IMG/VR virus record: IMGVR_UViG_3300042556_002263
DNA: 64,000 nucleotides
DNA from: an uncultured virus (IMG/VR IMGVR_UViG_3300042556_002263)
Taxonomy: Duplodnaviria; Heunggongvirae; Uroviricota; Caudoviricetes
Direction: 5' to 3' (one strand)
Below, piece by piece: positions 55-62,091 of the stretch; the stretch's first letter is position 1, and the number at the start of each line of letters is the position of its first letter. Under the pieces are notes generated by a model. That model saw only the letters and a program-made list of their open reading frames with translations, did not search any database and was not told the origin of the DNA. The position numbers were made by a program, and so were the translations under genes.

Positions 55-1452
55 TTAGATACTAGGGTCGATATTTTTGAACTCTTCCTCGAGCAGTTCA
101 AACTCGATTAGAGAAGACTTGATGTCTTCAGGAAGTTCTGCAGACTTTTCGCCGCCAACCCAATTGTCTGGAATCATTGCTTCCTGACCAAGTGCCTTGG
201 CGCGCTTCATGATGTGCTTCTTTGCCGCTTCCTTGTCGCTTGCTCTACCAAATGCAGAAATAGCATTCTTTAAGTCAGAGGCGTTGGCAATTGGGAAAGA
301 ACCATCGGGTAGAGCAGAACCTTCTTTGGCCATCTGGTTGCGGGCATCTTCGCTGAACGCTCTCTTGAGTGCAATTTCTGCAGCCTCTGCCTCAATTGAC
401 TCTGCTTCCTCTGGTTCATACTTGTCGTAGCCAAGAACTTCGCCATCAAGGGACACAAAAACGTCATATGACTTACCGTCAAGACCCTCAATCTCTACTG
501 CGTATGCGTCAAATCCCTCAAAAATGTCTGGCTCTACAGCAACAACATCTCCCTGAATTGACTTAACAGCAATTTCGGCAGCCTCTTGAAGGTCGATAAC
601 CAGAATTGAGTCAAGCGCAGACTTTTGCTCAAATGCACTGTCGTCAAGTTTGTGGAAACCAAGAACTTCTGCTGTTGTTCCATCGACAAAGACCTCTACC
701 GAGCGACCATCTTTTGTCTGGACATCAACAACGAACATGTCAGCATCTGATGAATATCCAGAGTCAAGAACTGTTCCGTTGAACATCTTCTCTGCTATTC
801 CCTCAACAGAGAGCAGACCTGGCATGCCTCTTTCTGCTACACAACCGCCTGGGCAGTCGTCGCAAACGGAAGTTCCACCTGGATAAACCTTGCGCTCAAT
901 GGCGCACATGTAGGCATTTCTTCCAAGTTCTGCAGACTTTGCGCCCATTGCTGAAAGTCTTCTCTTGCGGGCAGCCTCGAGGTCGGTGTCGCCACCGTAC
1001 ATCTTCATCTCGGTGTCGTCCTCCTCCTCTTCATCCTCCTCCATGTCCTCTTCGTCTTCCATGTCGTCGTCTTCTGCCATGGCTGGGTCAGCCTTGCGAC
1101 CACGCATCATTGCCTGACGGCGACCAGATGAGCCGGAGTTTGAATCCATCATCTTCTCTTCGTCCTCTTCGCCCTCATCCTCTTCGTCCATGACTTCTTC
1201 TTCGTCGTCCATAGTTGGAGATGCGACTGCCATTTTCTTTTTTTTCTTCATTGGCATTTCATCGTCCATCATCCAGTCGCCGCCCTTTTCGTCAATGTCG
1301 ACTGGAACCATCTTCATCTCGATGGGCATAGCGCCGCATTTTCCACAAACCTTTGCACCGGCAACATAACCGCACTCACCAGAATTAGCGCCCTTGGCGC
1401 ATTTCAGGACATTGCCGTCCGCGTCAACGCTGACTTCAACTTTTTCTGCCAT
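55..1452 (-). CDS. Head-associated multidomain protein: two Cys4-type clusters, acidic/Met-rich linker, two PepSY-like repeats, C-terminal 'LPDGSFPI...AI...GR' phage head domain
   Basis: 465-aa ORF with RBS CAGGAG. Cys motifs CAKGANSGECGYVAGAKVCGKC and CAIERKVYPGGTSVCDDCPGGC. PepSY-like IDLQEAAEIAVKSIQGDVVAVE...YAVEIEGLDGKSYDVFVSLDGEVLG. Lies downstream of the prohead protease gene. Confidence 0.6.
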   Translation of the reverse strand: MAEKVEVSVDADGNVLKCAKGANSGECGYVAGAKVCGKCGAMPIEMKMVPVDIDEKGGDWMMDDEMPMKKKKKMAVASPTMDDEEEVMDEEDEGEEDEEKMMDSNSGSSGRRQAMMRGRKADPAMAEDDDMEDEEDMEEDEEEEDDTEMKMYGGDTDLEAARKRRLSAMGAKSAELGRNAYMCAIERKVYPGGTSVCDDCPGGCVAERGMPGLLSVEGIAEKMFNGTVLDSGYSSDADMFVVDVQTKDGRSVEVFVDGTTAEVLGFHKLDDSAFEQKSALDSILVIDLQEAAEIAVKSIQGDVVAVEPDIFEGFDAYAVEIEGLDGKSYDVFVSLDGEVLGYDKYEPEEAESIEAEAAEIALKRAFSEDARNQMAKEGSALPDGSFPIANASDLKNAISAFGRASDKEAAKKHIMKRAKALGQEAMIPDNWVGGEKSAELPEDIKSSLIEFELLEEEFKNIDPSI

Positions 1453-1555: not shown

Positions 1556-4500
1556 TTATGCCTCTGGGACTATATTTATCTTTTTCTTCTGACCACGAGA
1601 GTTTGTCGCTTCTCTTGTAGTGGAATTTATTTCTTTTGTCGTCTTGTCAATAAATGTAGACTTTGCTGCTTTAGCAATCATCTCTATCAGTCTTGAATAC
1701 CACTCAACTCTCTTTTCCCCTCCATCTTCAAGTTGAGTGTCAAGGGCAAACATAAGTCCGTCAAGAATTTCGTCTGCCTCGTCCACGGTGAAATAGACGC
1801 TTCCGACATTGGTTCTTCTGCTTCCAGTCTTTGATGCTTCATCACGGCGGATTATTTCTGCAAGTTTGCTCAAGCCCTTTACTGCACGCTTATCGCCAGC
1901 CTTGGTTGCTCTTCTGATTTCTTTGTCAAGAGATTTTTCTACATCTCTAAAGAATGTCGCCTCGTCGGTAATCATTGTTTTTCCGCCGGACGATGTGGAT
2001 GCAAATCCTCTTGTTCCTGGATTTCCAGAACCTTGAAGTTTCTTAATATCCTTTTTAATATCTTTTGCAACTGTGCGCATCGCATTGGCCATCGATTCTG
2101 CCTCTTTGCGCCGTTTTTCTTGACCCTTGGCCCATCCGGATGTGTATTCAATTTCTCTTCCAGGAATTGAGCCAACAGAAGCAAACCCTGAACCCTTGCT
2201 CTTGGACGCCCCAGGAATCCACTCGTCATTTGCATAGCCAGCACGCGCTTTTGCTAATTGCTTTCTCATTGCCTTAGCGGAAGACATATTCACTCTTTCG
2301 GCCTTCGAGAGTTCGCCTTCCCCAAATTCGCCAATGTACTCGTCTAGCGCCTCTATTGCCCTATCAAGGCTCTGGAGGCTGAAGTCGTACCCGCCAACCT
2401 GTATTGCGTCGGAAACTTTATCCCATACATCTCTGTGGTCGTCAACCTCGGATTCGTCTGAATCAAACTTTGAGCGATATTTTTCTATTGCTTCAAGGAA
2501 TCCATCAAGTCTTGACTCTCTTTCGGTTTGTGCCTCTTGAGCATTTTTGCTCTTCTTAACCTTGACTGGAACTATTTCATCATCATCTTCTTGCGGTGCT
2601 GATGGCTTTTTTGCAGGCTTCTGTTTTTCTAGACTCGTCTCTGGCATGTAGCCCATGCTGTCTAGTTCTCTCTGGTCCGCTGACCTGCGTCTTAATTCGG
2701 CGCGTCTTTCGGCTGGAGTCATGGCGTCAAGGTCATCTTTATCCATTTCTTCCATTAGGTCATTTAGAAGTTTCCTGTAGGCAACCTGTGACATTCTTTC
2801 TTCTACATTTTCAATGTTTTCTGGGTTTCCATATGTCATCGCCCATTGCCATTTTTCGTCAAGAGTAAGTTCATCCCAATTGTCTGGTTTCATTTCTTCA
2901 AAAGTTTTTCCAGCAAACTTTGTTTCAAATCCGGGCTTTTTTCTTGTTTGGCCCGTTTCGCGACTTCTCCCTGGGGCAATGTTTCCACCTGGAACAAATT
3001 CACCCATTCCCCTTGCTCCACGGGCGGTACGGCCCGCCGCTTCGTCGTCTCCAGGCCCGTCAATGCTTGAAGATGCAAATCCTCTAGTGCGACCAGCGGA
3101 AGCAAACGGGCGTGCTTTTGCACCAGATGCATCGCTTCGTGAAGTGTCTGATGGTTTTTCTACAAACTTCCCAGTTCCCCAGTGGTCAACAATCCAGTCC
3201 CTTCTAGCGATAAGAATCTGAGCAAGTCTGTCGCCATCTTGTTGGTCTGAGATTGTTTGTGCAACAAGTTTTCTAATATCTTCGTCTGTAACTTTTCCAA
3301 GTTCTTTTACTTGCCTTGCGATTTCTTCTGGTTCTATATCGCTGTAGTACGCCCTGGAAACACCAGCCTGAACTGATTGTCCGCTCCTTGTTTTACCGTG
3401 TATTAAGTTATAAACCTCTTCGACTCGCGGACCAAACGAATCAGTGCCGCCCTGACCCTTCATCCCGCTATACCTTTGGGCGCGGAACAAAAGACCACCA
3501 CCAGAGTCGGCCATGACTGCCTCGCCGTCACGTTCAACAATATTTGACATATTGCCGGTTCCGTCCCAGTTTGCTAACCATGCATTTGCGATAAGCGTTC
3601 CTTGCATTGATTTTCTAAATTGTGGGTCTTGCGACATTCTTCTGTGGTCAACACTGCTGTCGATACTTGGGTCCCATTCGCTTACTCTCTGAAGTTTTCC
3701 ATTATGAACGCCACGCTCATATTTGATTGTTCCTATTCCAAGAAGTTGGTACAACTTGCTTGTAAGTATTTCTGATTCACCACGGAACTCTTCTCCAGCA
3801 CGAGTGTGCTTAACGTAGTACTTTTTGCCAGTCTTTGGGTCTTGCATGACGCTTGCTTCATTCAGACCACCTGCACCACCAACTTTTTTCCATCCGCTGG
3901 TTGTGTGAACATATGGAAGAGGTCCTCCGCCAGTGTCTCTCATGCCGCCACCAGTTGGCTGACTGATGTTTGGACCACCACTCCGTGAACCAAAACCACG
4001 ACCACGCGCACTTCCCGGCCCCATGTTTCCATACATGGTTCGAAGTGCTTTCCATTGAGAAGCCTTCAGTTGACCATTGTTTTTGTCAAAGTCTTCAACT
4101 ATTGACTGTGCAACTCTTAGACCCCTCTGTCTTCTTGCCCAGAATATGAATTCTTTTTGCATTGACTCAGTTATGTCGCTAGGTGCACCATTGTTGATTT
4201 TGTTGGTTGACGCAAATCCCTTTTTGGGTTTAGGTGGGTCAATAAAATCGTTGATGTCATACTTTCCATCTGCTGATTCAGCAGCCTGGTGAAGAACTCC
4301 GGATATATCTGAAGTAAGGAGGCCGTTTTCCCACGCTTCTTCCGTTAGTTTGACTATTGAATCAAATTGCTCTGGCGTTACTTCGAATTTTCCACCCTTT
4401 GCTCCTCTGAGAATTTCTTTCAAAGCCTCCGCAGCCGGGCGGTCCTTTGTGCGGTCAGCAATAAAATCTGCTTCTTCAAGCAAAAGTGCTATTCCATCTT

Positions 4501-7500
4501 CATCAAGCGTTATGCTTAATTTCTTTGCGGGCGTCAAAGTTCCTTCTGATGTAAGTTTTCTATCTCTAGTTCTAGAACGAGTGCTTCTTCCCGCAACGGA
4601 AAGTCTTGTTCCGGCTTCTTTTAGTTTTCCTGATTCCGAATAGCCAGTCTTTTGCGCTTCCTTGAGAGCATCAATAAGTGAATCAATGTTGTCTTTATCT
4701 TCTTTTGAAACATCGTCAAGACCAACTCCGCCATCGCGCATAGATTCAAGTATTCCCAGATAGTCACCCAACTCGTCATCTTCAAGCGGAATCATGTCAT
4801 TTGCCGCAATGCTGGCGTCTATTTTTTCAGTTAATTCTTTGAGTTTTTCAATTTCATCTTCTGCGCCAAAGTCGCCTTCTTCGAGTTTTTTAATAACATT
4901 ATTGATTGAATCTTGAAGTTCTCCATACTCCTCAAGCGTCATGTCTACTTGTTTGAAGTCATCTTCTAGTTTTTCTTTTCCACCAGAAGATGCAAACCCT
5001 CTACGGACTGCTCTGTTTTGGGAGTCTCTGTCAAGCCTGTCTGCTACTTCGTCGCCTACAGGGTCTGCTTGCATTCCTCTGCCTGGCGTTCTTTCGCGAG
5101 GACCAAACGCTTCGTCATAGTCTGGGTCGCCAGCGTCGTCAGTACGACTAGAAGATGCGAATCCACGCAGTCTTTCTTTTTCTGACCTTCCACGGTCAGG
5201 TCTGTACTTAGAGTCTTTTTGTACCCTGCGTAGTTCATTTATGAGGTCGCCACCAGTAATGTCCTCATCGCCCCATGAATCTGCTATTTCTTCAAGTTGA
5301 GTGTTCTTTTCCCCGCCCTTTTTTAGGGCTTTGCGCAGTTTATTAGTCAATTCTTCCGGCTGCATGGATGGGTCAAGTTCTTGAATATGTTCTAGAACCA
5401 TCTCTAATTCATATTGCAAATCTTGAGTATCGAATTCACCATTTCTGATTCTTTCTTTCATCGCGGAAGTTATAACGCTTTTACCCAATGAATCAAGCCA
5501 GTCTGCAAAATCTTCAGAGCCTCCAGCCTCGCCCTGTAGACCTCTTTCGACAATGTCAATAAGGTCTTCAAGAGCAAATTTTGCTTGTTCTTTTGCATCT
5601 TCTGGGCGAAGTTCTATTTCTCCCCTGCCCCACCATGGGTCAGAGTATTGTTCTTTTCTTCTAGTAGCCCAAAAATCTTTTGCTCTTTTAGCAATATTTT
5701 CAGCCATATCCCTGAAATCGCTTTCAAGGTCTGATGAAAGTTCTTCAAATTCTTTTAATTCTGATTTTGAACCAGTTTTTTCAATTTCAGAAAATCTGTC
5801 AGTAAGCGCTTCCTCTATTGCGTCTTCAACCGAACCAAGAAAATCATCAATTTGCTCTCTACTCTCAAACTGTTCAATAAAATCTTCGTCAGATAGTTTT
5901 TCAACAAGATTTTTTCTTACTTCAGATAACGCTTTTCCAGGACTTTCTTTGATTTTTTCTTTTGAAAGAGGAGCAAAAATTTCATTTAAAGAAGACAAAA
6001 CCTTGTCGTATTCATCTTGATGAAATGAGTAAATGTTGCCATCTCTGTTTGTTATCTTTGAAGCATTGCCCTTGCCAACTATTGTTCTTGCTGCCTGGTC
6101 AATAACGTCGTCTACTTTTTCTGCTCTTCCCGAAACAAGTTCCGGTTTACCGGAAGACGATGCAAAGCCTTTAGGTTTTCTATTTTTTAAATTTTCATCA
6201 GAGAATGGTTTTTTCCTGGAAAGTTGTTGACCGGTTCTGGCTTTTTCGTAATCTTCGATTATGTCCCTTACGCTGTCTTCGGGAATATCTAATCTATTCG
6301 CAAGTTTGGTTATATCTTCGTCACTACCGATATTGTTTAAAATTCTTATGTAATTTGCATCGGCTTCATCAATTAGGTCACGACCCCACTTGTCTCCAAG
6401 TATGTTCGTTATTTGTTCGTGTGTTCTTTCCGGCTTATTGCTAGTTGACGCAAAGCCAGCACCTCCCTGATAAGCCTCAACCGCTCTTCTGGCATTAACT
6501 TTTCCGCCAGTTGCTCTATCGTTTACACCGGGAATAGCAGGTCTTTGAAACGGTGTTCCTTCTTGTACTAGGCCGTCTCCGTCTCCGTCCCAGGCATTTG
6601 GGTCGAAGCGCGCAAAAGCAGCCCTACCGGCTGCTGGACCTTTTCCCAGGCCGCCACGGAGATTACGCCCAAGACCTTTCTGCGCATTATCTATTGCCTC
6701 TACTAAGTCCTTTGTCACCCCTGACGTAATTAATATTCCGTCTTCCGTAACAATGGACTCAACTCTGTGATAATCAAAAATTGGGTCAAGGATTGATTTT
6801 GTGTGAAAAGCACTTTCTAATTCAACCGGAATTAGGTAGCCCTTAGTTTCAAGGTCTTCTTTTTCTGCAGAAGCAATTACGTCTTGAAGATTTTCGAGAA
6901 TAGACTTAAGTTTTGAAAGATTTCTTTTGTTGATTGTTCTTCCAACTTTTTCATCCAACTCTTGCATCAACGCATCTTCAAGTTCTTCTAGTTGCCCAGA
7001 TAGGTCAGACTTTGGCATTACAACCATTCCATTTGGGTCATATCCAGGTTTTACCTGCATTGGCATCATTGGCATCTGCGAAGGAACAACAACTCTTGAA
7101 CCAGATGGTTTTCCACCAAACTGTGATGGCTTATTTTGGCCGTTTACAAGTTCTGGCTTGCCAAACATGAATGTTGAGTAATTGTCTGGCGTGTGATATC
7201 CGATTCTGAATGTCATTGGGGTGCCATTTGGCATCATTCTTTGGAATACTGCTGTATTTTCCGTTGCCTCAACTAGTCTTACTTGAGAACCAGTTCTTTC
7301 CATTATTTCTTTTTCTAGACGCTGTCTTTGGCTTCCATCAATCGGCTGCGCAAGGCCCTCGGAGAAAATTGGCTTTTCTGATTCATACTTGTCATCGTCA
7401 TCTTCGTCTTCTTCTCTGATGACTATTACATTGGGTTTCATCGGCATTTGACCCATCATGTGATGGGGGTTCATCATTCCCCATCCCTTCTCCTCTTCTG

Positions 7501-8026
7501 CTAAAGCCAACTCATCCGACTTAACGGATATTGTCCCAGTCAGTTGATTTGCGCCATGTAGAACTGGAGAAACTTCGTATAGTTCGACTTCTTTTAAAAC
7601 ATTCGCCTGAATGTTTGGGTCAAAAATTGCATCAAGCGTTTTATATCCGATTGACCATTCCTGTTCTTGACCGAAGAAAGCGACATTCGCAAATGCCTCA
7701 CGACCCTTTTCCGAATTCAAGTTGAACTGAACTTTTGCGTAAAGACCGCCTATCCCTGCATTAATCATTTTTTGCGGAAGTCTTCTATCGCCAGGCGGAA
7801 CTTCGTAAATCTCTAGAACTTTGCCAATTGGGTCATTCCAGTTGTGACCCCAGACAACTCTTGGCTTTCTTCTTGTAAGGCTCTTGGAAAAAGCGCCAGC
7901 AATCAAAACATCGCCAACCGAGTCCTTGTTTCCTATTCCGGCAACAAAACACTCAACAATTCCCTGCGCCTCATCTACATTGAACTGTCCTGGCATAGCC
8001 TTGAATTCGATACTGCTATTAGACAT
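1556..8026 (-). CDS. HK97-family (peptidase S78) prohead protease fused to a ~1980-aa modular polyprotein that includes a PI3K/HipA-like kinase domain
   Basis: N-terminal ~170 aa carry prohead-protease motifs (GNKDSVGDV..GAF, VVWGHNW..PIG, GGLYAKVQFNL, EWSIGY, LYEVSPVLHGAN). Follows the portal gene, RBS AGGAGA. Internal YYVK...AWLANWD...N...DSGG kinase-like motif. Confidence 0.85.
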   Translation of the reverse strand: MSNSSIEFKAMPGQFNVDEAQGIVECFVAGIGNKDSVGDVLIAGAFSKSLTRRKPRVVWGHNWNDPIGKVLEIYEVPPGDRRLPQKMINAGIGGLYAKVQFNLNSEKGREAFANVAFFGQEQEWSIGYKTLDAIFDPNIQANVLKEVELYEVSPVLHGANQLTGTISVKSDELALAEEEKGWGMMNPHHMMGQMPMKPNVIVIREEDEDDDDKYESEKPIFSEGLAQPIDGSQRQRLEKEIMERTGSQVRLVEATENTAVFQRMMPNGTPMTFRIGYHTPDNYSTFMFGKPELVNGQNKPSQFGGKPSGSRVVVPSQMPMMPMQVKPGYDPNGMVVMPKSDLSGQLEELEDALMQELDEKVGRTINKRNLSKLKSILENLQDVIASAEKEDLETKGYLIPVELESAFHTKSILDPIFDYHRVESIVTEDGILITSGVTKDLVEAIDNAQKGLGRNLRGGLGKGPAAGRAAFARFDPNAWDGDGDGLVQEGTPFQRPAIPGVNDRATGGKVNARRAVEAYQGGAGFASTSNKPERTHEQITNILGDKWGRDLIDEADANYIRILNNIGSDEDITKLANRLDIPEDSVRDIIEDYEKARTGQQLSRKKPFSDENLKNRKPKGFASSSGKPELVSGRAEKVDDVIDQAARTIVGKGNASKITNRDGNIYSFHQDEYDKVLSSLNEIFAPLSKEKIKESPGKALSEVRKNLVEKLSDEDFIEQFESREQIDDFLGSVEDAIEEALTDRFSEIEKTGSKSELKEFEELSSDLESDFRDMAENIAKRAKDFWATRRKEQYSDPWWGRGEIELRPEDAKEQAKFALEDLIDIVERGLQGEAGGSEDFADWLDSLGKSVITSAMKERIRNGEFDTQDLQYELEMVLEHIQELDPSMQPEELTNKLRKALKKGGEKNTQLEEIADSWGDEDITGGDLINELRRVQKDSKYRPDRGRSEKERLRGFASSSRTDDAGDPDYDEAFGPRERTPGRGMQADPVGDEVADRLDRDSQNRAVRRGFASSGGKEKLEDDFKQVDMTLEEYGELQDSINNVIKKLEEGDFGAEDEIEKLKELTEKIDASIAANDMIPLEDDELGDYLGILESMRDGGVGLDDVSKEDKDNIDSLIDALKEAQKTGYSESGKLKEAGTRLSVAGRSTRSRTRDRKLTSEGTLTPAKKLSITLDEDGIALLLEEADFIADRTKDRPAAEALKEILRGAKGGKFEVTPEQFDSIVKLTEEAWENGLLTSDISGVLHQAAESADGKYDINDFIDPPKPKKGFASTNKINNGAPSDITESMQKEFIFWARRQRGLRVAQSIVEDFDKNNGQLKASQWKALRTMYGNMGPGSARGRGFGSRSGGPNISQPTGGGMRDTGGGPLPYVHTTSGWKKVGGAGGLNEASVMQDPKTGKKYYVKHTRAGEEFRGESEILTSKLYQLLGIGTIKYERGVHNGKLQRVSEWDPSIDSSVDHRRMSQDPQFRKSMQGTLIANAWLANWDGTGNMSNIVERDGEAVMADSGGGLLFRAQRYSGMKGQGGTDSFGPRVEEVYNLIHGKTRSGQSVQAGVSRAYYSDIEPEEIARQVKELGKVTDEDIRKLVAQTISDQQDGDRLAQILIARRDWIVDHWGTGKFVEKPSDTSRSDASGAKARPFASAGRTRGFASSSIDGPGDDEAAGRTARGARGMGEFVPGGNIAPGRSRETGQTRKKPGFETKFAGKTFEEMKPDNWDELTLDEKWQWAMTYGNPENIENVEERMSQVAYRKLLNDLMEEMDKDDLDAMTPAERRAELRRRSADQRELDSMGYMPETSLEKQKPAKKPSAPQEDDDEIVPVKVKKSKNAQEAQTERESRLDGFLEAIEKYRSKFDSDESEVDDHRDVWDKVSDAIQVGGYDFSLQSLDRAIEALDEYIGEFGEGELSKAERVNMSSAKAMRKQLAKARAGYANDEWIPGASKSKGSGFASVGSIPGREIEYTSGWAKGQEKRRKEAESMANAMRTVAKDIKKDIKKLQGSGNPGTRGFASTSSGGKTMITDEATFFRDVEKSLDKEIRRATKAGDKRAVKGLSKLAEIIRRDEASKTGSRRTNVGSVYFTVDEADEILDGLMFALDTQLEDGGEKRVEWYSRLIEMIAKAAKSTFIDKTTKEINSTTREATNSRGQKKKINIVPEA

Positions 8027-8120: not shown

Positions 8121-10151
8121 CTACATCCGAGAACCCATTGACCACGCGATTCTGGCCTCACTCTGCGCTATTTCGTATTTTTTCTTTGCTATAAGATTCG
8201 TAAATATTCCAACCAACGATGTTCTGAGCGCAGTTGAACGCTCCTCGCCATCAGCAATGTTGAGAGTCCCCAGTATCGAGTTGCTAATTTGCTGTGCGGT
8301 TTCATCATTGATTGACTTAATTCTCTCAACTTGTGAATTGACCTGAGCAACAATGTCTTCTTTTTTGATTGGTGTCTTAATCAAAGACTTTTCGGCAAAC
8401 ATTGTCTGGGAATCGGTAATTATCGCATTCAACACTGGTTTGATGTCTTCTTCTATTTGCTTTGACCAAACTTCTGTTTGAAAAACGCTTTCGGTGTCAA
8501 GGAATCCAGAGATTAGTTGTTTTCTGGCTTTTGCACCCGCTGCTTTTTCCAGAACAACCCGCTGTTGTCTTTCAAAGATTCTCTCAAGGCTTCTGTCAAG
8601 AATTTCTGTCCATCTATCAAGCGTGTTGTCTTCTTCTGATTTTGTCCGCATTCCTCCATAAGACATTGAAGCCTGCTGTGGTGCCGTCTCCATAGAAGCC
8701 TGTTCTGGCGGAGCAACTTCTGGACCCATTCCAGCCTGTGCAGCCATTGACTGATTCTGTGATGCCAACTCCATTGCGCCCTGCATGGTTGTTGGGTCTG
8801 GAGGAGCGGCACCCTCTGGTGGCATTCCAGGCATTGCCCCTGGTGCCCCTGGTGCCCCTGGCATTCCCGGAGGAGGTGGAGCACCCATGACACCAGCCTG
8901 CGCTGGTTGTTCCATTTTTTTCTTTGTGTTGGCGATTGGTGTCAGGTTTGGGTTTAGTAGCAGAGAGTCTGCTAGGTCGCTTTCGACTTCTTTTCTTCCG
9001 GTTTTATCTCTGTACTCATTGAGGCTGATTAGACCCTGCGTGAACTCTTCTTTTGTGTATCTGTTTCTTTCCTGCTCGTACAAAATTAAAACAGGAACAT
9101 TTGAGACATCAAAATCTATGTAGTAATCATCATCTAGTTCATCTAGCGCTCTACCTATTGGCTCTAGGTGTGGAAGCATTGTTTCGTTCCAGAAAACTCT
9201 AATTTCTTCACCGGCATTAGAAAATGTTCTGCCAGCAGCATTTCCAATGACAGATTCTGGAACGCCAAAAGATGCAAGAATTTCTTCTTTTGTAATCTGA
9301 CGCATCTGAATATATGCAGCGTCTCGTGGGCTTGCTGATGTATCAACAAAGTCAGCGCCATCATCAGAAGAAATAACTGTAGTTGCGCCAGCACGGGCTA
9401 TGTTTCCCCTAAATCTGCTCTTCAGTTCTTCTTTGTCGTCATCGTCTATTTCTCCACGGAGAACAAGTAGACCACCCGGTCTTCCGTCGTTTATAAGATA
9501 ATTTCTGTTATAGACCTTTGCAAGATTTTCAATCTCAACAGCAATTCCCGCTGCTTCAAGCGGCGTCATTGACAGGTATGGGTCAAGCGGGTGCGGTTTT
9601 CTAATCCATATGACGTCTTCTGGTTTCATGTTGACAATTGCACCATTTGGCATTCTCACTTCGTAGCCAGCAACAAACCTCTTGGGGTCAGGTATTGGGG
9701 CAGTGCTTTGTGGCGGCAAAAGGTTTAGACCGATAACAGCACCATCTCGACCGTATATTTTTTCAATGAACACGCCACGAGTGCTCATCAACAACTGAGA
9801 AGAAAGCCTGTACCTAAAAATAAAAGAGTTTTCGCCAATATTAGATTTTGTGTTAAGAAGTTTTAGTATCTCTGAATTTTTTGCTTTGGAGCCCTTGATT
9901 ATCTCGCCATGTGGAGAATTGTCTTTCCTCAAAACTATTGGTAGGCGCGCTTGATTTCCGGCAATGGCGTCGATACATCTTGCTACCCATGTAACCTTCT
10001 GCATTCCTTCCCGGTAGACACGCTCGATGTCCCACGAGTCGGTATAAGGTTTTCCAATAAAACCAGGGTTATGGGACACGGGGGCACCCGGCCCGACAGC
10101 CTTTGACGATTCGTTGTTTAATGATTTATTGCTGTAATTATTCCACGCCAT
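8121..10151 (-). CDS. Phage portal protein (HK97 family) with Pro/Gly/Met-rich linker and C-terminal extension
   Basis: Motifs WVARCIDAIAGNQARLP, EDVIWIRKPHPLDPYLSMTPLEAA, NDGRPGGLL, ITKEEILASFGVPESVIG, GLISLNEYR. Confidence 0.92.
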   Translation of the reverse strand: MAWNNYSNKSLNNESSKAVGPGAPVSHNPGFIGKPYTDSWDIERVYREGMQKVTWVARCIDAIAGNQARLPIVLRKDNSPHGEIIKGSKAKNSEILKLLNTKSNIGENSFIFRYRLSSQLLMSTRGVFIEKIYGRDGAVIGLNLLPPQSTAPIPDPKRFVAGYEVRMPNGAIVNMKPEDVIWIRKPHPLDPYLSMTPLEAAGIAVEIENLAKVYNRNYLINDGRPGGLLVLRGEIDDDDKEELKSRFRGNIARAGATTVISSDDGADFVDTSASPRDAAYIQMRQITKEEILASFGVPESVIGNAAGRTFSNAGEEIRVFWNETMLPHLEPIGRALDELDDDYYIDFDVSNVPVLILYEQERNRYTKEEFTQGLISLNEYRDKTGRKEVESDLADSLLLNPNLTPIANTKKKMEQPAQAGVMGAPPPPGMPGAPGAPGAMPGMPPEGAAPPDPTTMQGAMELASQNQSMAAQAGMGPEVAPPEQASMETAPQQASMSYGGMRTKSEEDNTLDRWTEILDRSLERIFERQQRVVLEKAAGAKARKQLISGFLDTESVFQTEVWSKQIEEDIKPVLNAIITDSQTMFAEKSLIKTPIKKEDIVAQVNSQVERIKSINDETAQQISNSILGTLNIADGEERSTALRTSLVGIFTNLIAKKKYEIAQSEARIAWSMGSRM

Positions 10152-10400: not shown

Positions 10401-10438
10401 AAATCGTTTTTATGCAGCAATACCCGTACAGGAAAAAA

Positions 10439-11743
10439 ATGACCGACTGGGCAAAAGTTTTAGAGTATTTAGAGCCGAAGAAGCCACCGTTCTGCCCTGA
10501 AGAGCCGTCTTTAACTCAAAAAGTGTTTTTGAGAACAAATGCAATAGAGGCTTTGTTTGGTGGTGCTGCAGGTGGAGGAAAGTCGTCTGCTCTACTGATG
10601 TCTGCACTTCAATATGTTGACGTTCCTGGCTACTCCGCAATTCTCTTCAGAAGAACATTTGCCGACTTATCTCTTCCCGGCGCTCTCATGGACAGATTTA
10701 AGACATGGGTTGACGAAATGGACGGCATTCACTGGAACGCCAACAGTTATGTGGCAACCTTTCCTTCTGGCGCAAGAATTTCGTTCGGCTACTTGAACAA
10801 CACGAACGACTACCTCAGATATAAGGGTTCGGAATTTCAGTTCATCGGAATGGATGAGGTGACTGAAATTCGTGAATCTGATTACAGATATTTGTTCTCC
10901 CGTCTCCGTCGTCCTGCTTCTGGACCACTCTCTCAAGTTCCACTGCGAATGAGATGCGCATCCAACCCTGCACCCAACTGGGTCAGACAGCGTTTCATTA
11001 TTGAGGGGCTGGAAAAGGGGAGAATCTTCGTTCCGTCAAAACTGACCGATAACCCTGGAATTGACGCTGATTCGTATCGTCAAGCCCTGCAAGCCCTTGA
11101 CCCCATTGAGCGGAGAAGGTTGGAGGAGGGTGACTGGTGGTCAACCACCCTGGGAACAATGTTTGAAAGAGAGTCAGTTGTTATAATTGATAACTCGGAC
11201 ATTCCGGTGGTTACATCTGCGGCTAGGGCTGTCAGATTCTGGGACCTTGCGGCTACGGAGCCGTCACAGACGACCCCCAACCCTGACTGGACTGTTGGTA
11301 CATTGATGTTGTTTGATTCTGGTATTGCCTACATCTTGGATGTCCGTAAAATAAGGGCCAAAGGGGAAAAAGTAGAGCAATTTGTTGCCCAGACAGCCTA
11401 CGAGGACGGGAAAGGCGTAAGCATTAGAATGGAACAAGAACCAGGTTCCGCAGGTAAGGCACTGGTTGACCAATACGCCAGATATGTGGTTCCAGGCCAT
11501 GATTTCCAGGGAATTCGCTCAACTGGCGACAAGGTAACTAGGGCAAGACCATTTGCTGCCGCCGTTGCTAATGGAAATGTCCGCATTGTCCGTGGACCGT
11601 GGTTAACCGAATGGATGGATGAACTTTCTTCATTCCCGGAAGCATGCGACCATGACGACCAAGTTGACTCAGCCGTTGGGGCGTTTACATATTTGACAGG
11701 ACTAGGGTTGCCACAAAGAAAAATCGTCAGTATCATCGTCTGA
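10439..11743 (+). CDS. terL: Terminase large subunit
   Basis: Walker A GGAAGGGKS, Walker B FIGMDEVTE, coupling motif ASNP, RNase H-like nuclease (RFWDLAA...DWTVG, EQEPGSAG, HDDQVDS). Start placed at the ATG following AGGAAAA. Confidence 0.95.
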   Translation: MTDWAKVLEYLEPKKPPFCPEEPSLTQKVFLRTNAIEALFGGAAGGGKSSALLMSALQYVDVPGYSAILFRRTFADLSLPGALMDRFKTWVDEMDGIHWNANSYVATFPSGARISFGYLNNTNDYLRYKGSEFQFIGMDEVTEIRESDYRYLFSRLRRPASGPLSQVPLRMRCASNPAPNWVRQRFIIEGLEKGRIFVPSKLTDNPGIDADSYRQALQALDPIERRRLEEGDWWSTTLGTMFERESVVIIDNSDIPVVTSAARAVRFWDLAATEPSQTTPNPDWTVGTLMLFDSGIAYILDVRKIRAKGEKVEQFVAQTAYEDGKGVSIRMEQEPGSAGKALVDQYARYVVPGHDFQGIRSTGDKVTRARPFAAAVANGNVRIVRGPWLTEWMDELSSFPEACDHDDQVDSAVGAFTYLTGLGLPQRKIVSIIV

Positions 11744-15231: not shown

Positions 15232-15565
15232 TCCCATAAGTCAGGTTGAAATTGAGGGAGAACTTATGCGTCTTATGGACATGCTTGAATCCGAAACAGA
15301 AGCATTTGAGTCGCTTGCAGAAGACCTTGCTAAAAAAGAGGCTCTTTACAAATCAAACTGGGCCAAAGAATACTTGTCGGCCAAGGGTTCAATTAAGGAA
15401 CGCGAAGCGTGGGCTGACTACAAACTCGCAGACGAAAACTTTGATTACAAGATTGCAGAAGCACTTCTCAAATCAAAGAGAGAGAAACTGCTATCTTTGC
15501 GAACCTCGATAGATGCGCTCAGGACCCTGAACGCCAATGTCCGCATACAGGTTGGTAACCAATGA
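15218..15565 (+). CDS. Hypothetical coiled-coil protein
   Basis: 115-aa ORF with RBS GGAG, coupled to both neighbours. Confidence 0.7.
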   Translation: MPRNNPISQVEIEGELMRLMDMLESETEAFESLAEDLAKKEALYKSNWAKEYLSAKGSIKEREAWADYKLADENFDYKIAEALLKSKREKLLSLRTSIDALRTLNANVRIQVGNQ

Positions 15566-16335
15566 CGAAAATATCAAACGACCTATTGTCTCTTGCTCTC
15601 CCAATAGAAAATTTAATACCCCTGCAAAATAATCCGCGCAAGGGAAATGTGGAAGCAATTATGGCTTCATATAAAGAGTTCGGACAAATGAAACCAATTG
15701 TCGTGCGCCCTGAAAAAGACGGAACTTATGTTGTAATAGCGGGAAACCACCAATTGCAGGCCGCAAAAAATCTTGGGTGGACAGAAATAGCCGCCGTTCA
15801 GATGAACGCAGACGAAGAGAGGGCAATTGCGTTTGCGCTTGCCGATAACAGAACAATGGAACTCGGTCATACTGACCCATCTTTGCTGAATGACATCGTT
15901 GTTGACATCTGGGATGGATATCCGGAATTGTTTGAGGGTCTTGGCTGGGATGAGTTTGAACTTGCAGCCATCCAGGAAAGTCAGTTTGAAACAGAAGACA
16001 TTTCCCCTACAACAGGAGGATATGTTGCACCAACCCTTGTTACTGAGCCATTTCAACCGACAAACATAGTTATTGAGCAGTCAGAGGATGGTGAACGCAA
16101 GATTGTTGCGAATAGCGATTTTGACCACAATAAAGTCGCTGTTTCTGGAAGCACAATAGTTTCTCCTGGCTCGGCACCACAGGCAGTCGTTCAATACACT
16201 TTGGTTTTTGATAACCCAGACCAACAGCGTAGATGGTATGAGTTCATACGCTGGCTTAGGAATGACCCCGCAATCGAGGGAAATACAACTGCAGAAAAAC
16301 TTATTGACTTTATTGACCAGCACATAGAGATTTGA
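15562..16335 (+). CDS. ParB/Srx N-terminal domain protein
   Basis: NNPRKGNVEAIMASYKEFGQMKPIVV...VIAGNHQLQAAKNLGW...ALADNR. Confidence 0.88.
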   Translation: MTKISNDLLSLALPIENLIPLQNNPRKGNVEAIMASYKEFGQMKPIVVRPEKDGTYVVIAGNHQLQAAKNLGWTEIAAVQMNADEERAIAFALADNRTMELGHTDPSLLNDIVVDIWDGYPELFEGLGWDEFELAAIQESQFETEDISPTTGGYVAPTLVTEPFQPTNIVIEQSEDGERKIVANSDFDHNKVAVSGSTIVSPGSAPQAVVQYTLVFDNPDQQRRWYEFIRWLRNDPAIEGNTTAEKLIDFIDQHIEI

Positions 16336-16336
16336 C

Positions 16337-17479
16337 ATGACCAAACAACGCATGTTTCTAAATATCAGTTGTGTTGAGGCTGCTCGCCAACGAATACGCC
16401 ATGTCTACGACACATTTGACACAGTTTGTGTTCAGTTTTCTGGCGGGAAAGACTCGACCGCTATTCTCTATTTAGCCAAAGAAGTCCACGAAGAACGCGG
16501 TCTCGGTCCTGTAAAAGTCATATTCAGGGACGAAGAGATGGTTAGCCCAACCATCTATGACTATGTAAATAAAGTCAGACAGTATGACTGGGTTGACATG
16601 GAGTGGTATTGCCTTCCGTATGCAAATGAAGTTTGGGTTCTTGGAATCAGAGAGAACATACTTCAATGGGACCCGGTTAGGGCTGCTCAAGGAAAACTTG
16701 TTAGAGAAATGCCATCTTGGGCAATAAATGCTTCGCACTATGGATTACCCATGGATGAGACACCTCCAGAAAGCATTGACTACTACACGCTCCAGGGAAA
16801 GAAAGGGAGTGTTGCTTTTTTGACTGGAGTTAGGGCTAATGAGTCTATGGTTAGATACCGTTCTCTTGTTCAAAAGGTTCATGAGAACTACATTGTCTCT
16901 CCTTACAAGATGAAAAAATCGATACCTCTAAAGTTTGCAAAAGTCATATATGACTGGCAGACAAATGACGTATTCAAATTTATTTCAGAAGAACACAATG
17001 CTGAATACTGTGAGTACTACGACCTGGCGGCTATGACTGGCTCAAATACTCGGGTCGGCATTCCGCTTCATGCAGTTGCAATTCGTAGAATAGGCGATGT
17101 TGTTGCAACCGAGCCAGACTTTTACGACAGGCTCTGGGATGTATGGCCAGAAATAGATGCACAGCGGCGCTGGTGGCCAGATTTCGATATGGAAAAATAC
17201 ATAGAGAGTTACGCCGTTGACGGGTTTGAGGGCGCAAAACGATGCATAGAAGAAAATACTTCTGACGACCTAGATAAGCGTAGGGCGATGGCGTATGTTG
17301 CTGACTTCAGAAAAAAACACCTCAAGGACCCGTATTCGTACCCAATGAATTGGTTAATCAGAAATCTTTTGACGGCAGAACTTACTGGTGTTGCCGCAGC
17401 GCCAGTTGGGCCGAAAACAAAAGCAGATACCCTCAGGCAAAAGGCAGCACAACAGGAGTTGGATAATGAACAAAATTGA
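16337..17479 (+). CDS. PAPS-reductase-family (PP-loop) protein, IbrA-like
   Basis: EAARQRIRHVYDTFDTVCVQFSGGKDS, FRDEE, GVRANESMVR, IYDWQTNDVF; followed by a ParB-like partner as in IbrA/IbrB pairs. Confidence 0.85.
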   Translation: MTKQRMFLNISCVEAARQRIRHVYDTFDTVCVQFSGGKDSTAILYLAKEVHEERGLGPVKVIFRDEEMVSPTIYDYVNKVRQYDWVDMEWYCLPYANEVWVLGIRENILQWDPVRAAQGKLVREMPSWAINASHYGLPMDETPPESIDYYTLQGKKGSVAFLTGVRANESMVRYRSLVQKVHENYIVSPYKMKKSIPLKFAKVIYDWQTNDVFKFISEEHNAEYCEYYDLAAMTGSNTRVGIPLHAVAIRRIGDVVATEPDFYDRLWDVWPEIDAQRRWWPDFDMEKYIESYAVDGFEGAKRCIEENTSDDLDKRRAMAYVADFRKKHLKDPYSYPMNWLIRNLLTAELTGVAAAPVGPKTKADTLRQKAAQQELDNEQN

Positions 17480-18017
17480 AATGGTTGACTTTAATGAATT
17501 GAAGATTGCCCCTTTCAAGGCAACACACATTTTGCGTCCTGACCTATTGGCGCTCTCTTCTTCGCTTAGGGATTTTGGGTTCATAATTCCAATCGTTGTT
17601 CAAAAATCAACAAATATTGTGATAGATGGGAACGAGAGGGTTTTGCTGTCCTTGCATCAAAAAAGCATTTCTCAAGCAGTTGGCGACAAGTGTCCTGTTG
17701 TATTTATTGACTGTGACAGCATGGAAGCGCAGATGCTTCACCTGAGGCTTAATAGGTCTAGAGGGAATCTTTTGGCAAAGCCAATGTCAAAGATAATTAG
17801 AAATCTAGTGCAGTCAAAAAAATACAGCCGTTCCGACCTCGGTTCTCTTCTGCAAATGAAGCATGACGAGGTTCAGTTATTACTTGACGGCTCTTTGCTG
17901 AAGCACAAAAAAATATCTGAACACTCATATTCTCGTGCTTGGGTTCCAATTGAAGCAGACCCCAAAATAACTCAAGCGCCTTTGTCTATCGAAAAACCGC
18001 CCAATGCAGACCGCTGA
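17466..18017 (+). CDS. ParB-like protein, IbrB-like
   Basis: LSSSLRDFGFIIPIVV...VIDGNER...LRLNRSRG; start at MNKIE with RBS AGGAG. Confidence 0.8.
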   Translation: MNKIEMVDFNELKIAPFKATHILRPDLLALSSSLRDFGFIIPIVVQKSTNIVIDGNERVLLSLHQKSISQAVGDKCPVVFIDCDSMEAQMLHLRLNRSRGNLLAKPMSKIIRNLVQSKKYSRSDLGSLLQMKHDEVQLLLDGSLLKHKKISEHSYSRAWVPIEADPKITQAPLSIEKPPNADR

Positions 18018-20620: not shown

Positions 20621-22081
20621 ATGCCCGGAGTAGTAATAACCACATCAGTTAGAACAGGACCAACAAGCGATACTGTTCGCGAGTCTTCACAGGCTTTTTT
20701 TGTTGGTCTTGCACAGCGCGGTCCTTCAGATGAGGCAGTTCTTGTTCAAAGCCTCGCAGAGTTTGAAGAGACATTCGGTACATATGTTTCGTATGCGTAC
20801 CTCCACCCAACCGTACAAACCTTCTTTGAAGAGGGTGGCACACAGTGCTACATCGCAAGAGTTGTAGGACCAGCAGCAACAACCGCTTCCCTTGACCTTG
20901 ATGACTCGGCTTCAGCGACCGCAATCACATTGACAGCAAATGGTCCTGGCAACTGGGCACATGACCTTGATGCCGAGGTTATTGCTTCTGGCTCAAAGAG
21001 AAACATCAAACTGATTTACAACAATGACACCGTTTACACAACCGGCCTAAAATCAACAAATGCCGAACTTGTTAACGCAATCAACAACAGCCCTATTGCT
21101 AGCAAGTACGTAAGTGCTGTTGCTGGTGCCGGTACGCTTGTTGCTTCAGTCGCTGCAACCGCACTTGCTGGCGGAGATGACGATAGAGACGACAACACTG
21201 TTGACACATCTTTCACTGCATTTGTTGATGCTCTTGAACTTTTCCTTGATTCGTTTGGTCCTGGCGCAGTATCTTGCCCAGAGACGCACACAATCAATGC
21301 CGAACTGATTGCTCATGCAAACTCATACAGCAGAGTTGCAATTCTTCACACCGCATCTGGCGATGATGCAACAGATGCGAAAGATGAAGCAGACGACCTG
21401 TCTGGCGAAGACGGTTCCGAGCATGCCGCCCTCTACTACCCATGGGTATACATCCCAACCACCGTAACCGGCGTAAATAGACTCATCCCGCCAGATGGTC
21501 TTGTTGCTGGTTCAAGAGGTGCTGCGCATAACAGTGTTGGCCCACATCAGCCAGCAGCAGGTCTAATTTCAGCCGCATCATTCGTGAACGGCGTTGAAGT
21601 TGACATCAACAAGACTGTTGGCGACGACCTCGACGACAACTACGTTAATGCAATCCGTGTTATTGCAAATGGCGTAAGAGTTTATGGCGCTCGCTCACTG
21701 TCAACAGACACTGAGAACTTCAGATTTGTTAGCACCCAGGACACCGTAAACACGGTTGTACATAAGGCAAACAGGTCGATGGAAGACCTTCTGTTCTCCC
21801 CAATCGATGGAAGAAATGCTTTGTTCACCGAGATTCAGGGTCGACTGAAGTCAATTTGCGAAATTCTTGCTCGCGAAGGTTCTCTGTACCCAGCCTACGA
21901 TACGAACGGAAAACTTATTGACGAAGGTTTCACTGTTAAGTGTGACGCCTCAATCAATACAACCGCTCAATTGGCAGAGGGCAAAGTTAAGGCTCAAATA
22001 GGTCTTAGAGTTTCGCCAATTGGTGACAAAATCGAGGTAACAATCATCAAATCAAATCTCACTGGTTCAGTGACGGTATAA
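20621..22081 (+). CDS. Contractile tail sheath protein
   Basis: MPGVVI..., FFVGLAQRGP, FFEEGGTQCYIARV, GPGNWA, AALYYPWV, IPPDGLVAG, VNAIR...VYGARSL. Confidence 0.95.
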   Translation: MPGVVITTSVRTGPTSDTVRESSQAFFVGLAQRGPSDEAVLVQSLAEFEETFGTYVSYAYLHPTVQTFFEEGGTQCYIARVVGPAATTASLDLDDSASATAITLTANGPGNWAHDLDAEVIASGSKRNIKLIYNNDTVYTTGLKSTNAELVNAINNSPIASKYVSAVAGAGTLVASVAATALAGGDDDRDDNTVDTSFTAFVDALELFLDSFGPGAVSCPETHTINAELIAHANSYSRVAILHTASGDDATDAKDEADDLSGEDGSEHAALYYPWVYIPTTVTGVNRLIPPDGLVAGSRGAAHNSVGPHQPAAGLISAASFVNGVEVDINKTVGDDLDDNYVNAIRVIANGVRVYGARSLSTDTENFRFVSTQDTVNTVVHKANRSMEDLLFSPIDGRNALFTEIQGRLKSICEILAREGSLYPAYDTNGKLIDEGFTVKCDASINTTAQLAEGKVKAQIGLRVSPIGDKIEVTIIKSNLTGSVTV

Positions 22082-41517: not shown

Positions 41518-41918
41518 TGCAAAGACTCATTTATTGCCCGAGTAATGAAAAACTCGACGAGGCTTCAAGTTTAGGGAAAAAACTTTCTTTGCCGATAGTT
41601 GTTGGCGAATCAGAGTCAATATCTTTTATTAATTTTGATAGAGATTCTGTTTCTGTTTTGATTGTTCCTGAAAAAAATCAAATTCGTTTTATTGAAAACG
41701 TGAATCATGGTTTACATCAGTCAGTTAGGTATACAAACGAGTTTGTTGACTTTGATGATACAACAATGCTTAAGGATGGCGACCTGGAAATTGCGCCAAC
41801 CATACATGAAAAACACTATTGCCAATTTATATACCCCTGTAATAGTGTAGGCAGTCGTTCGTTCTCCGTTTTTGTTAACGGAGTTTTCTTAGAGGAAAGA
41901 AACTACGTTGTTAGTTAA
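41517..41918 (+). CDS. Hypothetical protein
   Basis: 133-aa ORF coupled to its neighbours. Confidence 0.65.
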   Translation: MQRLIYCPSNEKLDEASSLGKKLSLPIVVGESESISFINFDRDSVSVLIVPEKNQIRFIENVNHGLHQSVRYTNEFVDFDDTTMLKDGDLEIAPTIHEKHYCQFIYPCNSVGSRSFSVFVNGVFLEERNYVVS

Positions 41919-42498
41919 GAAAGAAAAAGCACCAGCAATTTGGGTTTACGAAGACTGTTTTAACCCGAAAAATTTTATTGACCTTATAGAAGAAGAAGCG
42001 TCTAAGGACTGGCCATATTTGTCATGGACATCTTCTAGCACTGGAGGAAAAGATGCATCCGTTACTTCTGAATATAGAACTTCACAAGAAATGTTTGTAA
42101 GCCCATTGTTGTCTGACAAAGTTGACGAATCTTTAAAAGACATTAGTTCTTTATTCTTTAATATTTTTTCAGATATAGACAAAACTGTGTGGGATTACAG
42201 GGAATGCTTTGACCTTTATCTCAACTCCCATGAAGGTTTGGGTCTTTTAAAATACTCACACGGCGGCGAGTATCACCATCACTACGACCATGCGCCAGAC
42301 AACGCCAGGGTTCTGAGCCTAGTTGCTTCAATGTCTTCTGACTGCGAGGGTGGCGAACTTGAGTTCCCACATTTTGGAACAAAACTAAAACTTCAAACAG
42401 GCTCTGTTGTTTTGTTTCCTTCTAATTTTCCCTACATGCACATAGCGCATCCGGTAACTTCAGGCACTAAATACAGTATGGTAACGTGGTTTGTATGA
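41908..42498 (+). CDS. 2OG-Fe(II) oxygenase (prolyl-4-hydroxylase-like)
   Basis: LKYSHGGEYHHHYDH (HxD), EGGELEFP, VLFPSNFPYMHIAHPVTSGTKYSMVTW. Confidence 0.92.
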   Translation: MLVKKEKAPAIWVYEDCFNPKNFIDLIEEEASKDWPYLSWTSSSTGGKDASVTSEYRTSQEMFVSPLLSDKVDESLKDISSLFFNIFSDIDKTVWDYRECFDLYLNSHEGLGLLKYSHGGEYHHHYDHAPDNARVLSLVASMSSDCEGGELEFPHFGTKLKLQTGSVVLFPSNFPYMHIAHPVTSGTKYSMVTWFV

Positions 42499-56092: not shown

Positions 56093-56121
56093 TTGACATC
56101 ATGTAATTATTGTTGTACGGT
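56093..56121 (+). promoter_or_regulatory. Sigma70/SigA-type promoter TTGACA-N17-TACGGT
   Basis: Exact 17-nt spacer; RBS GAGGTG and ATG at 56141. Confidence 0.65.
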
Positions 56122-56140
56122 CACTTACAGAGGTGACAAC

Positions 56141-56761
56141 ATGACAACAATAGTCGCAATTCAGGGAGATGGCTTTACCGTCGTCGGCGCAGATACAAGA
56201 ATAACCAGTTTTGACAGCAATGGGAATGCATATCAGTACACAAATTTAGGCAACGGTATGTCGAAGATTGCCACAAGAGGCAAGTATCTCTTGGGGGCAG
56301 CAGGCGATGTGCGCGCCATTAATATTCTTCACCATGTATTCCAACCCCCTCCGGTAGCACCAACCCTAAAGGGGAAGAAACTAGATGCTTTCATTACCGG
56401 GAAACTGATACCCACAATGCGCCAATGCTTTGACGCTCAGGGATACTCGGCACCAGAACACGGTACAGACAGAACGCACAGGGCTGAGCAGGACTCAACT
56501 ATTGTCGTAGCGATTAACGGAGTCTCCTACTTCATAGAGAACGACTATTCGTGGACCTCGGAATCAAACGGCTTCTATGCCTGTGGTAGCGGTTCAGACT
56601 ATGCGCTTGGGGCTTTGTACTGTCTGGCTTCCAGTAAGACGCTTTCTGCACATCAGGCAAAACAGGCAATTATCAAATCACTTGCCGCTGCTGCGAAGTT
56701 CGACCCCGGTACTGGCGGTCCGTACCACACCTTTATCCAGCAATCGCAGGGGACGAAATGA
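56141..56761 (+). CDS. Ntn-hydrolase protease, proteasome-beta / HslV-like
   Basis: M-TTIVAI (N-terminal catalytic Thr), GADTRIT, KI, GAAGD, ACGSGSDYALGAL, AAKFDPGTGG. Confidence 0.85.
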   Translation: MTTIVAIQGDGFTVVGADTRITSFDSNGNAYQYTNLGNGMSKIATRGKYLLGAAGDVRAINILHHVFQPPPVAPTLKGKKLDAFITGKLIPTMRQCFDAQGYSAPEHGTDRTHRAEQDSTIVVAINGVSYFIENDYSWTSESNGFYACGSGSDYALGALYCLASSKTLSAHQAKQAIIKSLAAAAKFDPGTGGPYHTFIQQSQGTK

Positions 56762-62080: not shown

Positions 62081-62091
62081 AGTGGCGACCT

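Follow-up and report, generated by a model that had tools for sequence, protein, structure and literature searches.

A protease-led polyprotein divided by ten GFAS-like motifs, candidate cut sites of a fused prohead protease, in an uncultured myovirus

The head proteases of bacteriophages T4 (gp21, acting on IPI-III and Alt, with capsid-targeting sequences), phiKZ (gp175) and SPN3US (gp245) process internal proteins, some of which are ejected, by cutting at a short motif. Codes of the T4/phiKZ type read L/I-x-E, S/A/G-x-E or A-x-E, and the protease is of the S77 type. The HK97 head protease, gp4, is a protein of roughly 200-230 amino acids (aa), and the herpesvirus protease UL26 frees itself at defined sites of the form Phi-x-Ala/Ser (Phi, hydrophobic residue), with an M site before the C-terminal part. 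Two reports on SPN3US describe the processing of head and ejection proteins by its head protease (PMC10052503, PMC5694885), and a third describes the polyvalent proteins of phages and conjugative elements, giant multi-module proteins with lineage-variable modules for which packaging, delivery and release by embedded peptidases have been proposed (Iyer et al. 2017, PMC5512222). Here we analyse a gene at 1556..8026 (minus strand) of IMG/VR virus record IMGVR_UViG_3300042556_002263, a stretch of 64,000 nucleotides from an uncultured virus whose full length we call the window. The gene encodes a 2156-aa polyprotein in which an S78/HK97-type prohead protease leads a chain divided by ten GFAS-like motifs. 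We propose, with a probability of roughly 65%, that these motifs are cut sites of the fused protease and that cutting would release cargo packaged in the head.

The protease-led chain and its ten motifs

The 2156-aa open frame is 100% identical to a protein in public collections, which one source names 'HK97 family phage prohead protease'. Its matches to known families are confined to the N-terminus, where Pfam Peptidase_S78 (PF04586) covers residues 23-166 only (41.1 bits against a cut-off of 21) and PHROG 80, 'head maturation protease', covers residues 3-179 (E 8.3e-28). Together with an AlphaFold2 (AF2) model, these matches place the S78/HK97-type protease domain at residues ~10-180 (7487..7999, minus strand), in agreement with a sequence-only reading of this DNA that had assigned only ~170 aa to an HK97-type protease. 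His61 (in VVWGH), Ser125 (EWSIGY) and His157 (PVLHGAN) do not vary across two alignments, one of 25 and one of 42 sequences, and, by analogy with the S78 family, are the putative catalytic residues. The AF2 model of residues 1-560, built from the 42-sequence alignment, has a pLDDT (predicted local distance difference test) of 70.8 and is confident for the protease at residues 10-157. When the protease domain was searched with Foldseek, the top matches were the Epstein-Barr virus and herpes simplex virus (herpesvirus) proteases and T4 gp21, with probabilities of 0.90-0.99 and E values of only 0.016-0.046.

In aligned relatives the protease is followed by a conserved accessory region of three small folded domains, residues 225-523 (6458..7354, minus strand), which the model resolves into blocks at residues 225-296, 341-454 and 469-523 with disordered stretches between them; no Pfam family matches this region. 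Homologues align with residues 1-560 of the polyprotein at 41-79% identity. The gene lies in the head module, with the portal gene directly upstream (8121..10151, minus strand; Pfam Phage_portal PF04860, E 1.4e-48) and the large terminase gene nearby on the opposite strand (10412..11743). No phage in a searched collection of cultured phages has a protein like this one: tblastn returned 189 matching records, none covering 80% of the polyprotein; the matches comprise only the protease domain (at most 44% identity, in Gordonia phages) or residues ~1371-1626.

Beyond the accessory region, all ten motifs reported by the sequence-only reading are present at the places it had given, as eight exact GFAS, one GFGS and one PFAS, against 0.04 GFAS expected from composition. 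On the minus strand, with the first base of the Gly (or Pro) codon at the higher coordinate of each, they are motif 1, A-GFAS-T, at the end of the conserved N-terminal region (residues 524-527, 6446..6457); motif 2, K-GFAS-S (620-623, 6158..6169); motif 3, R-GFAS-S (955-958, 5153..5164); motif 4, R-GFAS-S (1010-1013, 4988..4999); motif 5, K-GFAS-T (1270-1273, 4208..4219); motif 6, R-GFGS-R (1344-1347, 3986..3997); motif 7, the degenerate copy R-PFAS-A (1640-1643, 3098..3109); motif 8, R-GFAS-S (1649-1652, 3071..3082); motif 9, S-GFAS-V (1947-1950, 2177..2188); and motif 10, R-GFAS-T, directly before a conserved C-terminal module (2007-2010, 1997..2008). Codons vary between copies (GGC, GGA, GGG or GGT; TTT or TTC; GCG, GCA or GCT; TCA, TCG, TCT or TCC), and conservation is therefore at the level of the peptide, as had been claimed before this comparison. 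The ORF contains no stretch of seven or more consecutive A. A T_TTA_AAA heptamer (residues 612-614; 6180..6195, minus strand, residues 611-615), with TAG immediately after it in the -1 frame, is found just before motif 2. A slip at this heptamer would give a short form of 614 aa; a single relative, 91% identical, shares the module, and conservation of the heptamer cannot be judged from it.

The ten segments into which the motifs divide the chain are mutually unrelated, the best pairwise BLASTP E value being 0.019. Their lengths are 92, 331, 51, 256, 70, 292, 294, 56 and 146 aa, so that the earlier description of unrelated, domain-sized segments stands in its first part and falls short in its second, the 51-aa piece being predicted to be disordered. 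The models show at least six folded blocks in the polyprotein. In the AF2 model, modules 2-4 (4220..6157, minus strand) comprise a helical module (residues 624-954), a disordered acidic spacer (959-1009) and an alpha/beta module (1014-1269). Module 6 (residues 1348-1639; 3110..3985, minus strand) is the sole module with a recognisable fold, which is protein-kinase-like: the best Foldseek match, at residues ~1371-1626, is the H. pylori kinase CtkA (E 2e-3, probability 1.0, template-modelling score 0.53-0.56 on the target), followed by eukaryotic-type kinases. By tblastn, large proteins of Felix-O1-like, Pseudomonas, Yersinia and Gordonia phages also contain this domain, and a number of these proteins are annotated as ADP-ribosyltransferases. 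Separate Pfam and PHROG scans of each module, the kinase-like one included, gave no match at the curated cut-off. Module 9 (residues 2011-2156, 146 aa; 1559..1996, minus strand) is the C-terminal module, which BLASTP against homologues shows to be conserved.

An AlphaFold model of residues 500-1699, built from a 22-sequence alignment, has a mean pLDDT of 64.8 and consists of confident helical or alpha/beta blocks split by coil with pLDDT below 50. All eight motifs within the modelled stretches are inside or at the edge of these coil linkers, and none is buried in a folded domain. In the 1-560 model, disorder starts exactly at residue 524, that is, at motif 1. In residue numbers of the longer model, motif 2 lies inside a segment with pLDDT below 50 (97-130), motif 3 (residue 955 of the protein) abuts a disordered segment (459-523) that contains motif 4, motif 5 falls in segment 755-771, motif 6 in 836-869, and motifs 7 and 8 in 1129-1200. 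In the 560-residue model, motif 1 is not docked in the protease active site, its tail being disordered, and a complex prediction for the protease (residues 1-185) with the linker (residues 500-545) gave a score of 0.00, which counts neither for nor against cleavage.

Conservation of the motif and exchange of modules

A search of 5.8 billion proteins, in which 8000 candidates were scored, yielded 269 relatives of 1185-3773 aa at E<=0.001. Motif counts were taken over 120 listed homologues, whose kinship means that the counts are not independent events. Nearly all of these homologues carry an S78 domain, and their other Pfam domains vary, including pentapeptide repeats, sigma-70 region 4, helix-turn-helix (HTH), RNase_T exonuclease, WYL and KTSC domains. 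The pattern G[FLM][ARSG]S occurs 965 times, compared with 62.7 in composition-preserving shuffles; three or more copies are present in 112 homologues, and no copy in 3. Residue order matters, as G-Phi-x-S occurs 946 times versus 26-47 for five scrambled orders, and so does the kind of hydrophobic residue, since Ile, Val, Trp or Tyr takes the place of Phe, Leu or Met in 36 occurrences versus the same 946. The first copy mostly falls at residues ~465-545, at the end of the conserved N-terminal region.

The residues around the motif bring in a different explanation, namely that the motifs are modification sites, for example for Ser phosphorylation by the kinase-like module or for glycosylation. 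Arg and Gly are enriched before the motif, Ser, Thr, Arg and Gly after it, and basic residues at positions -1 to -5; an invariant Ser with such basic residues upstream and Ser/Thr downstream, in a protein with a kinase-like fold in module 6, is what modification might look like. However, Ser is no more invariant within the motif across homologues than Gly and the hydrophobic residue, and many homologues that lack the kinase-like module (for example P0042-P0047) have 9-12 motifs, and we consider this explanation very improbable.

The motif is kept at the module junctions of homologues, in flavours that are specific to lineages: GFAS, GFSS, GLAS (up to 15 copies), GMRS (up to 16 copies), GLRS and GMAS, and also PLGSRS. 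Within each genome one flavour predominates. An exhaustive phmmer search with residues 1-523 extends the family to 3997 cluster representatives, 175-5358 aa long, at E<=0.001, of which 319 reach E<=1e-30. Among the best 150 of these representatives, more distant giants carry a [RK][LF]SSG flavour (with LSSG, for instance, in 13 copies), GFAS occurs 21 times in a member of 5358 aa, and members of 380-580 aa have no motif. In IMG/VR, at least 587 stretches encode a relative of the conserved N-terminal region.

Modules appear to be exchanged in the vicinity of the motifs. Internal ends of BLASTP high-scoring segment pairs fall within 15 aa of a motif in 211 of 433 cases, where 13.7% would be expected, although the ends come from related sequences and are not independent. 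Module order is swapped in homologues P0039-P0041, and P0010 has a single GFAS in place of GFAS-module-GFAS, lacking exactly the unit from motif 1 to motif 2. The C-terminal module (residues 2011-2156) is found by BLASTP in 126 of 248 homologues, at the extreme C-terminus in all 126 and with a motif no more than 25 aa upstream in 112 of them. The architecture is thus one of a conserved head, a variable middle and a conserved tail.

Such exchange would also be compatible with a polyvalent protein that stays intact and uncut, in which the motif is a linker element that binds the capsid interior, the portal or DNA, or is simply a recombination joint. Linker-mediated exchange of cassettes is evident, the single dominant flavour per genome is what recombination or gene conversion would yield, and some giants delivered from the virion, the virion RNA polymerase of N4 among them, enter the particle without processing according to the polyvalent-protein report (PMC5512222). 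Against this, codons differ between copies, so that DNA is not what is conserved; the same peptide, in matching flavour, recurs in an unrelated tape-measure protein, and it resembles a known protease site (both described below); and a fixed hydrophobic residue within a disordered linker rich in Gly, Ser and Arg is typical of a recognition site. We regard an uncut linker element as quite unlikely.

The signal beyond the polyprotein

Motif densities measured over 80 IMG/VR loci show that the signal is restricted to a few proteins. It reaches 2.98 motifs per 1000 aa in the polyprotein beyond residue ~455 (256 in 85,798 residues) and 1.42 in a second giant open reading frame (ORF) of 900-2800 aa located downstream in 24 loci (69 in 48,755). 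Portals have 0.06 (3 in 46,591), all other ORFs of at least 150 aa have 0.05 (5 in 108,876), and no motif occurs in the polyprotein N-terminus (0 in 36,581) or in the ORF that follows the polyprotein (0 in 15,232), the orthologue of a 465-aa neighbour in the window.

The second giant ORF, 1700-2800+ aa long, follows the gene of this 465-aa protein in 24 of the 80 related loci (for example, L006 18370-24726, L025 17815-23049 and L065 15177-23687). It encodes RNase_T, KTSC and DUF2510 domains, the first two of which also occur inside the polyproteins of other members, and its motif flavour follows that of the polyprotein of its own locus. In the layout of the window, its position would be left of position 1, outside the window.

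A third protein with the signal is the 1604-aa tape-measure protein (23355..28169, plus strand; PHROG 167 and 23574), encoded after the tail tube and tail chaperone genes. It carries A-GFAS-S at residue 40 (23472-23483, plus strand) and A-GFAS-A at residue 757 (25623-25634, plus strand). In nine of nine genomes, the window and eight relatives, the tape-measure motifs share their hydrophobic residue with the polyprotein of the same genome (Phe in four, Leu in four, Met in one). The flanks often match too, as in G011, where both proteins read GFASRG. In the eight relatives the sites are near the N-terminus, in the Gly/Ser-rich middle or in both places.

The tape-measure motif is left unexplained by a protease strictly confined to the prohead, and fits best with the possibility that the motifs are cut after delivery, the chain being ejected largely intact with its own protease active in the host, or are cut by a host protease or an HslV-like peptidase. 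The signal would then mark ejected proteins generally, head cargo and tape measure alike, and it is indeed common to these two, both expected to leave the virion, and almost absent from the portal and other ORFs. An HslV-family (proteasome-like) peptidase is encoded in the window (56093..56761, plus strand), adjoining a WhiB-like gene, and has homologues in two of five partial relative genomes; it was not found in the other three, in records that are only 29-47% complete. Set against this explanation, the S78 domain is the only protease fused to its substrates, and the motif resembles a capsid-protein site of HK97 that is cut inside the prohead. We judge cutting after delivery or by another enzyme to be unlikely.

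A broader extension of our proposal would treat G-Phi-x-S as a genome-wide 'ejectome code', whereby the protease-led chain, the second giant and the tape measure threaded into the host are all processed by the phage's own S78 protease, and modules bounded by motifs are swappable cassettes. This is a tentative possibility that we would not favour at present. If true, it would represent an RNA-virus-like polyprotein strategy in a large and diverse group of myoviruses, uncultured, up to ~140 kb in size and probably actinobacterial, and all the delivered proteins of hundreds of uncultured phages would be predictable from sequence.

The likeness to HK97 concerns the capsid protein. HK97 gp5 is cleaved at K103/S104 (PMC10275583), and the sequence at this site reads K-SLGS. 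Capsid proteins of relatives of our phage are close gp5 homologues (E ~1e-50), and their helical leader of ~91 aa gives way to K-SLGSS in two genomes, K-GLGSS in one and K-GLDRS in another. By sequence, the signal of the polyprotein, G-Phi-x-S preceded by a basic or small residue, resembles the HK97 K-SLGS cut site in shape.

The protein encoded directly downstream of the polyprotein (55..1452, minus strand) is the 465-aa neighbour, an acidic, Cys-rich protein that has one cluster of Cys at its N-terminus, a long stretch rich in Asp and Glu, another Cys cluster and repeats of PepSY-like type. It is 59-80% identical in 17 relatives, and its residues 363-444 match the C-terminal 83 aa of gp27, a protease-fusion protein of Gordonia phage DalanDe, at 60% identity (E 8e-27). 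This ORF was considered as the capsid protein and rejected, because it matches no capsid family and its C-terminus is homologous to that of a protease fusion; the same match makes it more likely to be scaffold-like, and it is probably a scaffold-like head-assembly protein.

As a whole, the window has the gene content of a myovirus, with tail sheath (20621..22081), tube, chaperone, tape measure and recombination genes. A WhiB-like regulator (56862..57194, plus strand) suggests an actinobacterial host. A gene for a 3'-phosphoadenosine 5'-phosphosulfate (PAPS)-reductase-like protein (16337..17479) lies between two ParB-like genes (15562..18017, plus strand), and this group may be a DNA-modification or host-takeover cassette. 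Genes for a 2-oxoglutarate (2OG)-Fe(II) oxygenase-like and a tryptophan-halogenase-like protein (PHROG 2928, E 2.6e-110) are found among tail-fibre and late genes at 41908..45034 (plus strand). The last part of the window, 62001..64000, has a G+C content of 57% versus 40-50% elsewhere and contains minus-strand ORFs, including those of a 503-aa protein (PHROG 33218) and an ATPase-like fragment.

Proposed processing and relation to known systems

We propose a chain with the S78 protease and ~340 aa of conserved accessory domains as its N-terminus, a 146-aa module as its C-terminus and exchangeable cargo between them, in which each junction would be a disordered linker bearing (basic or small)-Gly-Phe-Ala-Ser-(Ser/Thr). 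The protease and accessory regions would carry the whole chain into the procapsid, where the protease would then cut at the signals, in cis or between neighbouring chains. About ten pieces of 5.7-57.5 kDa would be released, to stay in the head or leave it, and some may enter the host along with the DNA. If the HK97 capsid protein is a guide, the scissile bond is probably just before Gly; alternatively it may follow the invariant Ser, as in the Phi-x-Ala/Ser sites of herpesviruses. Loading into the capsid is suggested by the fusion to a protease and by the position in the head module. The pieces may be effectors for injection; a recognisable fold, protein-kinase-like, is seen in only one module.

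Several observations weigh against this proposal. The protease domain is 60-80% identical across lineages of differing flavour, so that the flavours may have arisen by drift under a tolerant specificity, or by the spread of linkers through recombination, rather than by co-adaptation of protease and site. HMMER sets the HK97 cut site opposite residue ~150 of the relatives' capsid proteins, not opposite K-SLGS at ~91, so that the equivalence of the K-SLGS sites is our interpretation rather than an alignment result. The capsid protein of the phage under study is outside the window; in relative G002 the capsid gene (PF05065, E ~1e-45) is ~19 kb downstream of the polyprotein, and an equivalent gene would fall beyond the end of our stretch. 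Tails assemble apart from heads, and a protease restricted to the prohead would not be expected to encounter the tape-measure protein. Finally, the expectation that modules are gained or lost exactly at GFAS agrees with the alignment ends and with the unit missing from P0010, but under a strict test in which both edges must lie within 15 aa of a motif it holds for only 5 of 26 segments unique to the polyprotein and 7 of 35 unique to a homologue; many edges of unique segments are 20-40 aa from a motif, inside long disordered linkers. The sequence-only reading had proposed a cargo polyprotein, loaded through the protease and cut at GFAS into effectors for injection. It gains partial support from the linker position of the motifs, their conservation at junctions, the occurrence of the signal in trans and its likeness to the capsid site; the first two of these run counter to two outcomes that the reading had named as refuting, burial of the motifs in folded domains and their lack of conservation at homologous junctions. 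What the sequences and models show is the motif, its conservation across the family, its position in linkers, its restriction to proteins of cargo type and the intact catalytic residues, whereas cleavage, encapsidation and injection are inferred.

If the signal is a cut site, it would provide a sequence rule for an S78 head protease, a family for which we know of no published cut-site consensus. The proteins packaged in the capsid, and possibly injected, could then be listed across a large uncultured phage family, and inserting a module between two signals would be a natural way to bring foreign proteins into the head of a phage. The concept of polyvalent proteins would likewise be extended to a protease-led, repeatedly cut type.

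Full-text searches of a literature collection that lacks most subscription journals turned up no account of the motif, nor of a polyprotein that is led by a protease and punctuated repeatedly. The closest described systems each share part of the arrangement. HK97 gp4 (MEROPS S78) belongs to the same protease family as the polyprotein N-terminus; here, however, the protease is the first part of a 2156-aa chain in which about nine further modules and ten candidate sites follow, and, unlike in HK97, the second giant ORF and the tape-measure protein also carry the signal. With T4, phiKZ and SPN3US the locus shares a head protease, a short motif and multiple internal proteins, the cleavage here being predicted. 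Those systems differ in that the protease is S77-type and the cargo consists of separate, leader-targeted genes, whereas here an S78 protease leads a single chain with G-Phi-x-S at internal junctions. Herpesvirus UL26 (assemblin) offers another likeness, an N-terminal protease on a longer, putative assembly protein with a candidate site before the conserved C-terminal module, though cleavage of the phage chain is again a prediction. The candidate sites here far outnumber those of UL26 and of RNA-virus and retrovirus polyproteins, and the modules are unrelated and exchangeable.

The likeness to polyvalent proteins lies in the several unrelated domains per polypeptide and in module sets that are gained, lost and reordered among relatives. 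As for effector domains of the polyvalent kind, the kinase-like fold alone is recognised in this protein, and homologues carry exonuclease, sigma-70 region 4, HTH, pentapeptide and WYL domains. The difference is one of layout: the assemblin-like peptidase is C-terminal in the published description (PMC5512222), in whose consulted passages no repeated junction motif appears, whereas here the protease occupies residues ~10-180 of 2156 and is N-terminal in every inspected member of the family. DalanDe gp27, a protein of a cultured relative (1633 aa, with its protease at residues ~1122-1300), has no recurrent motif and fits the published polyvalent type. The protein described here would combine features of two known kinds of system, the processing of internal proteins by a head protease and the polyvalent proteins of phages.

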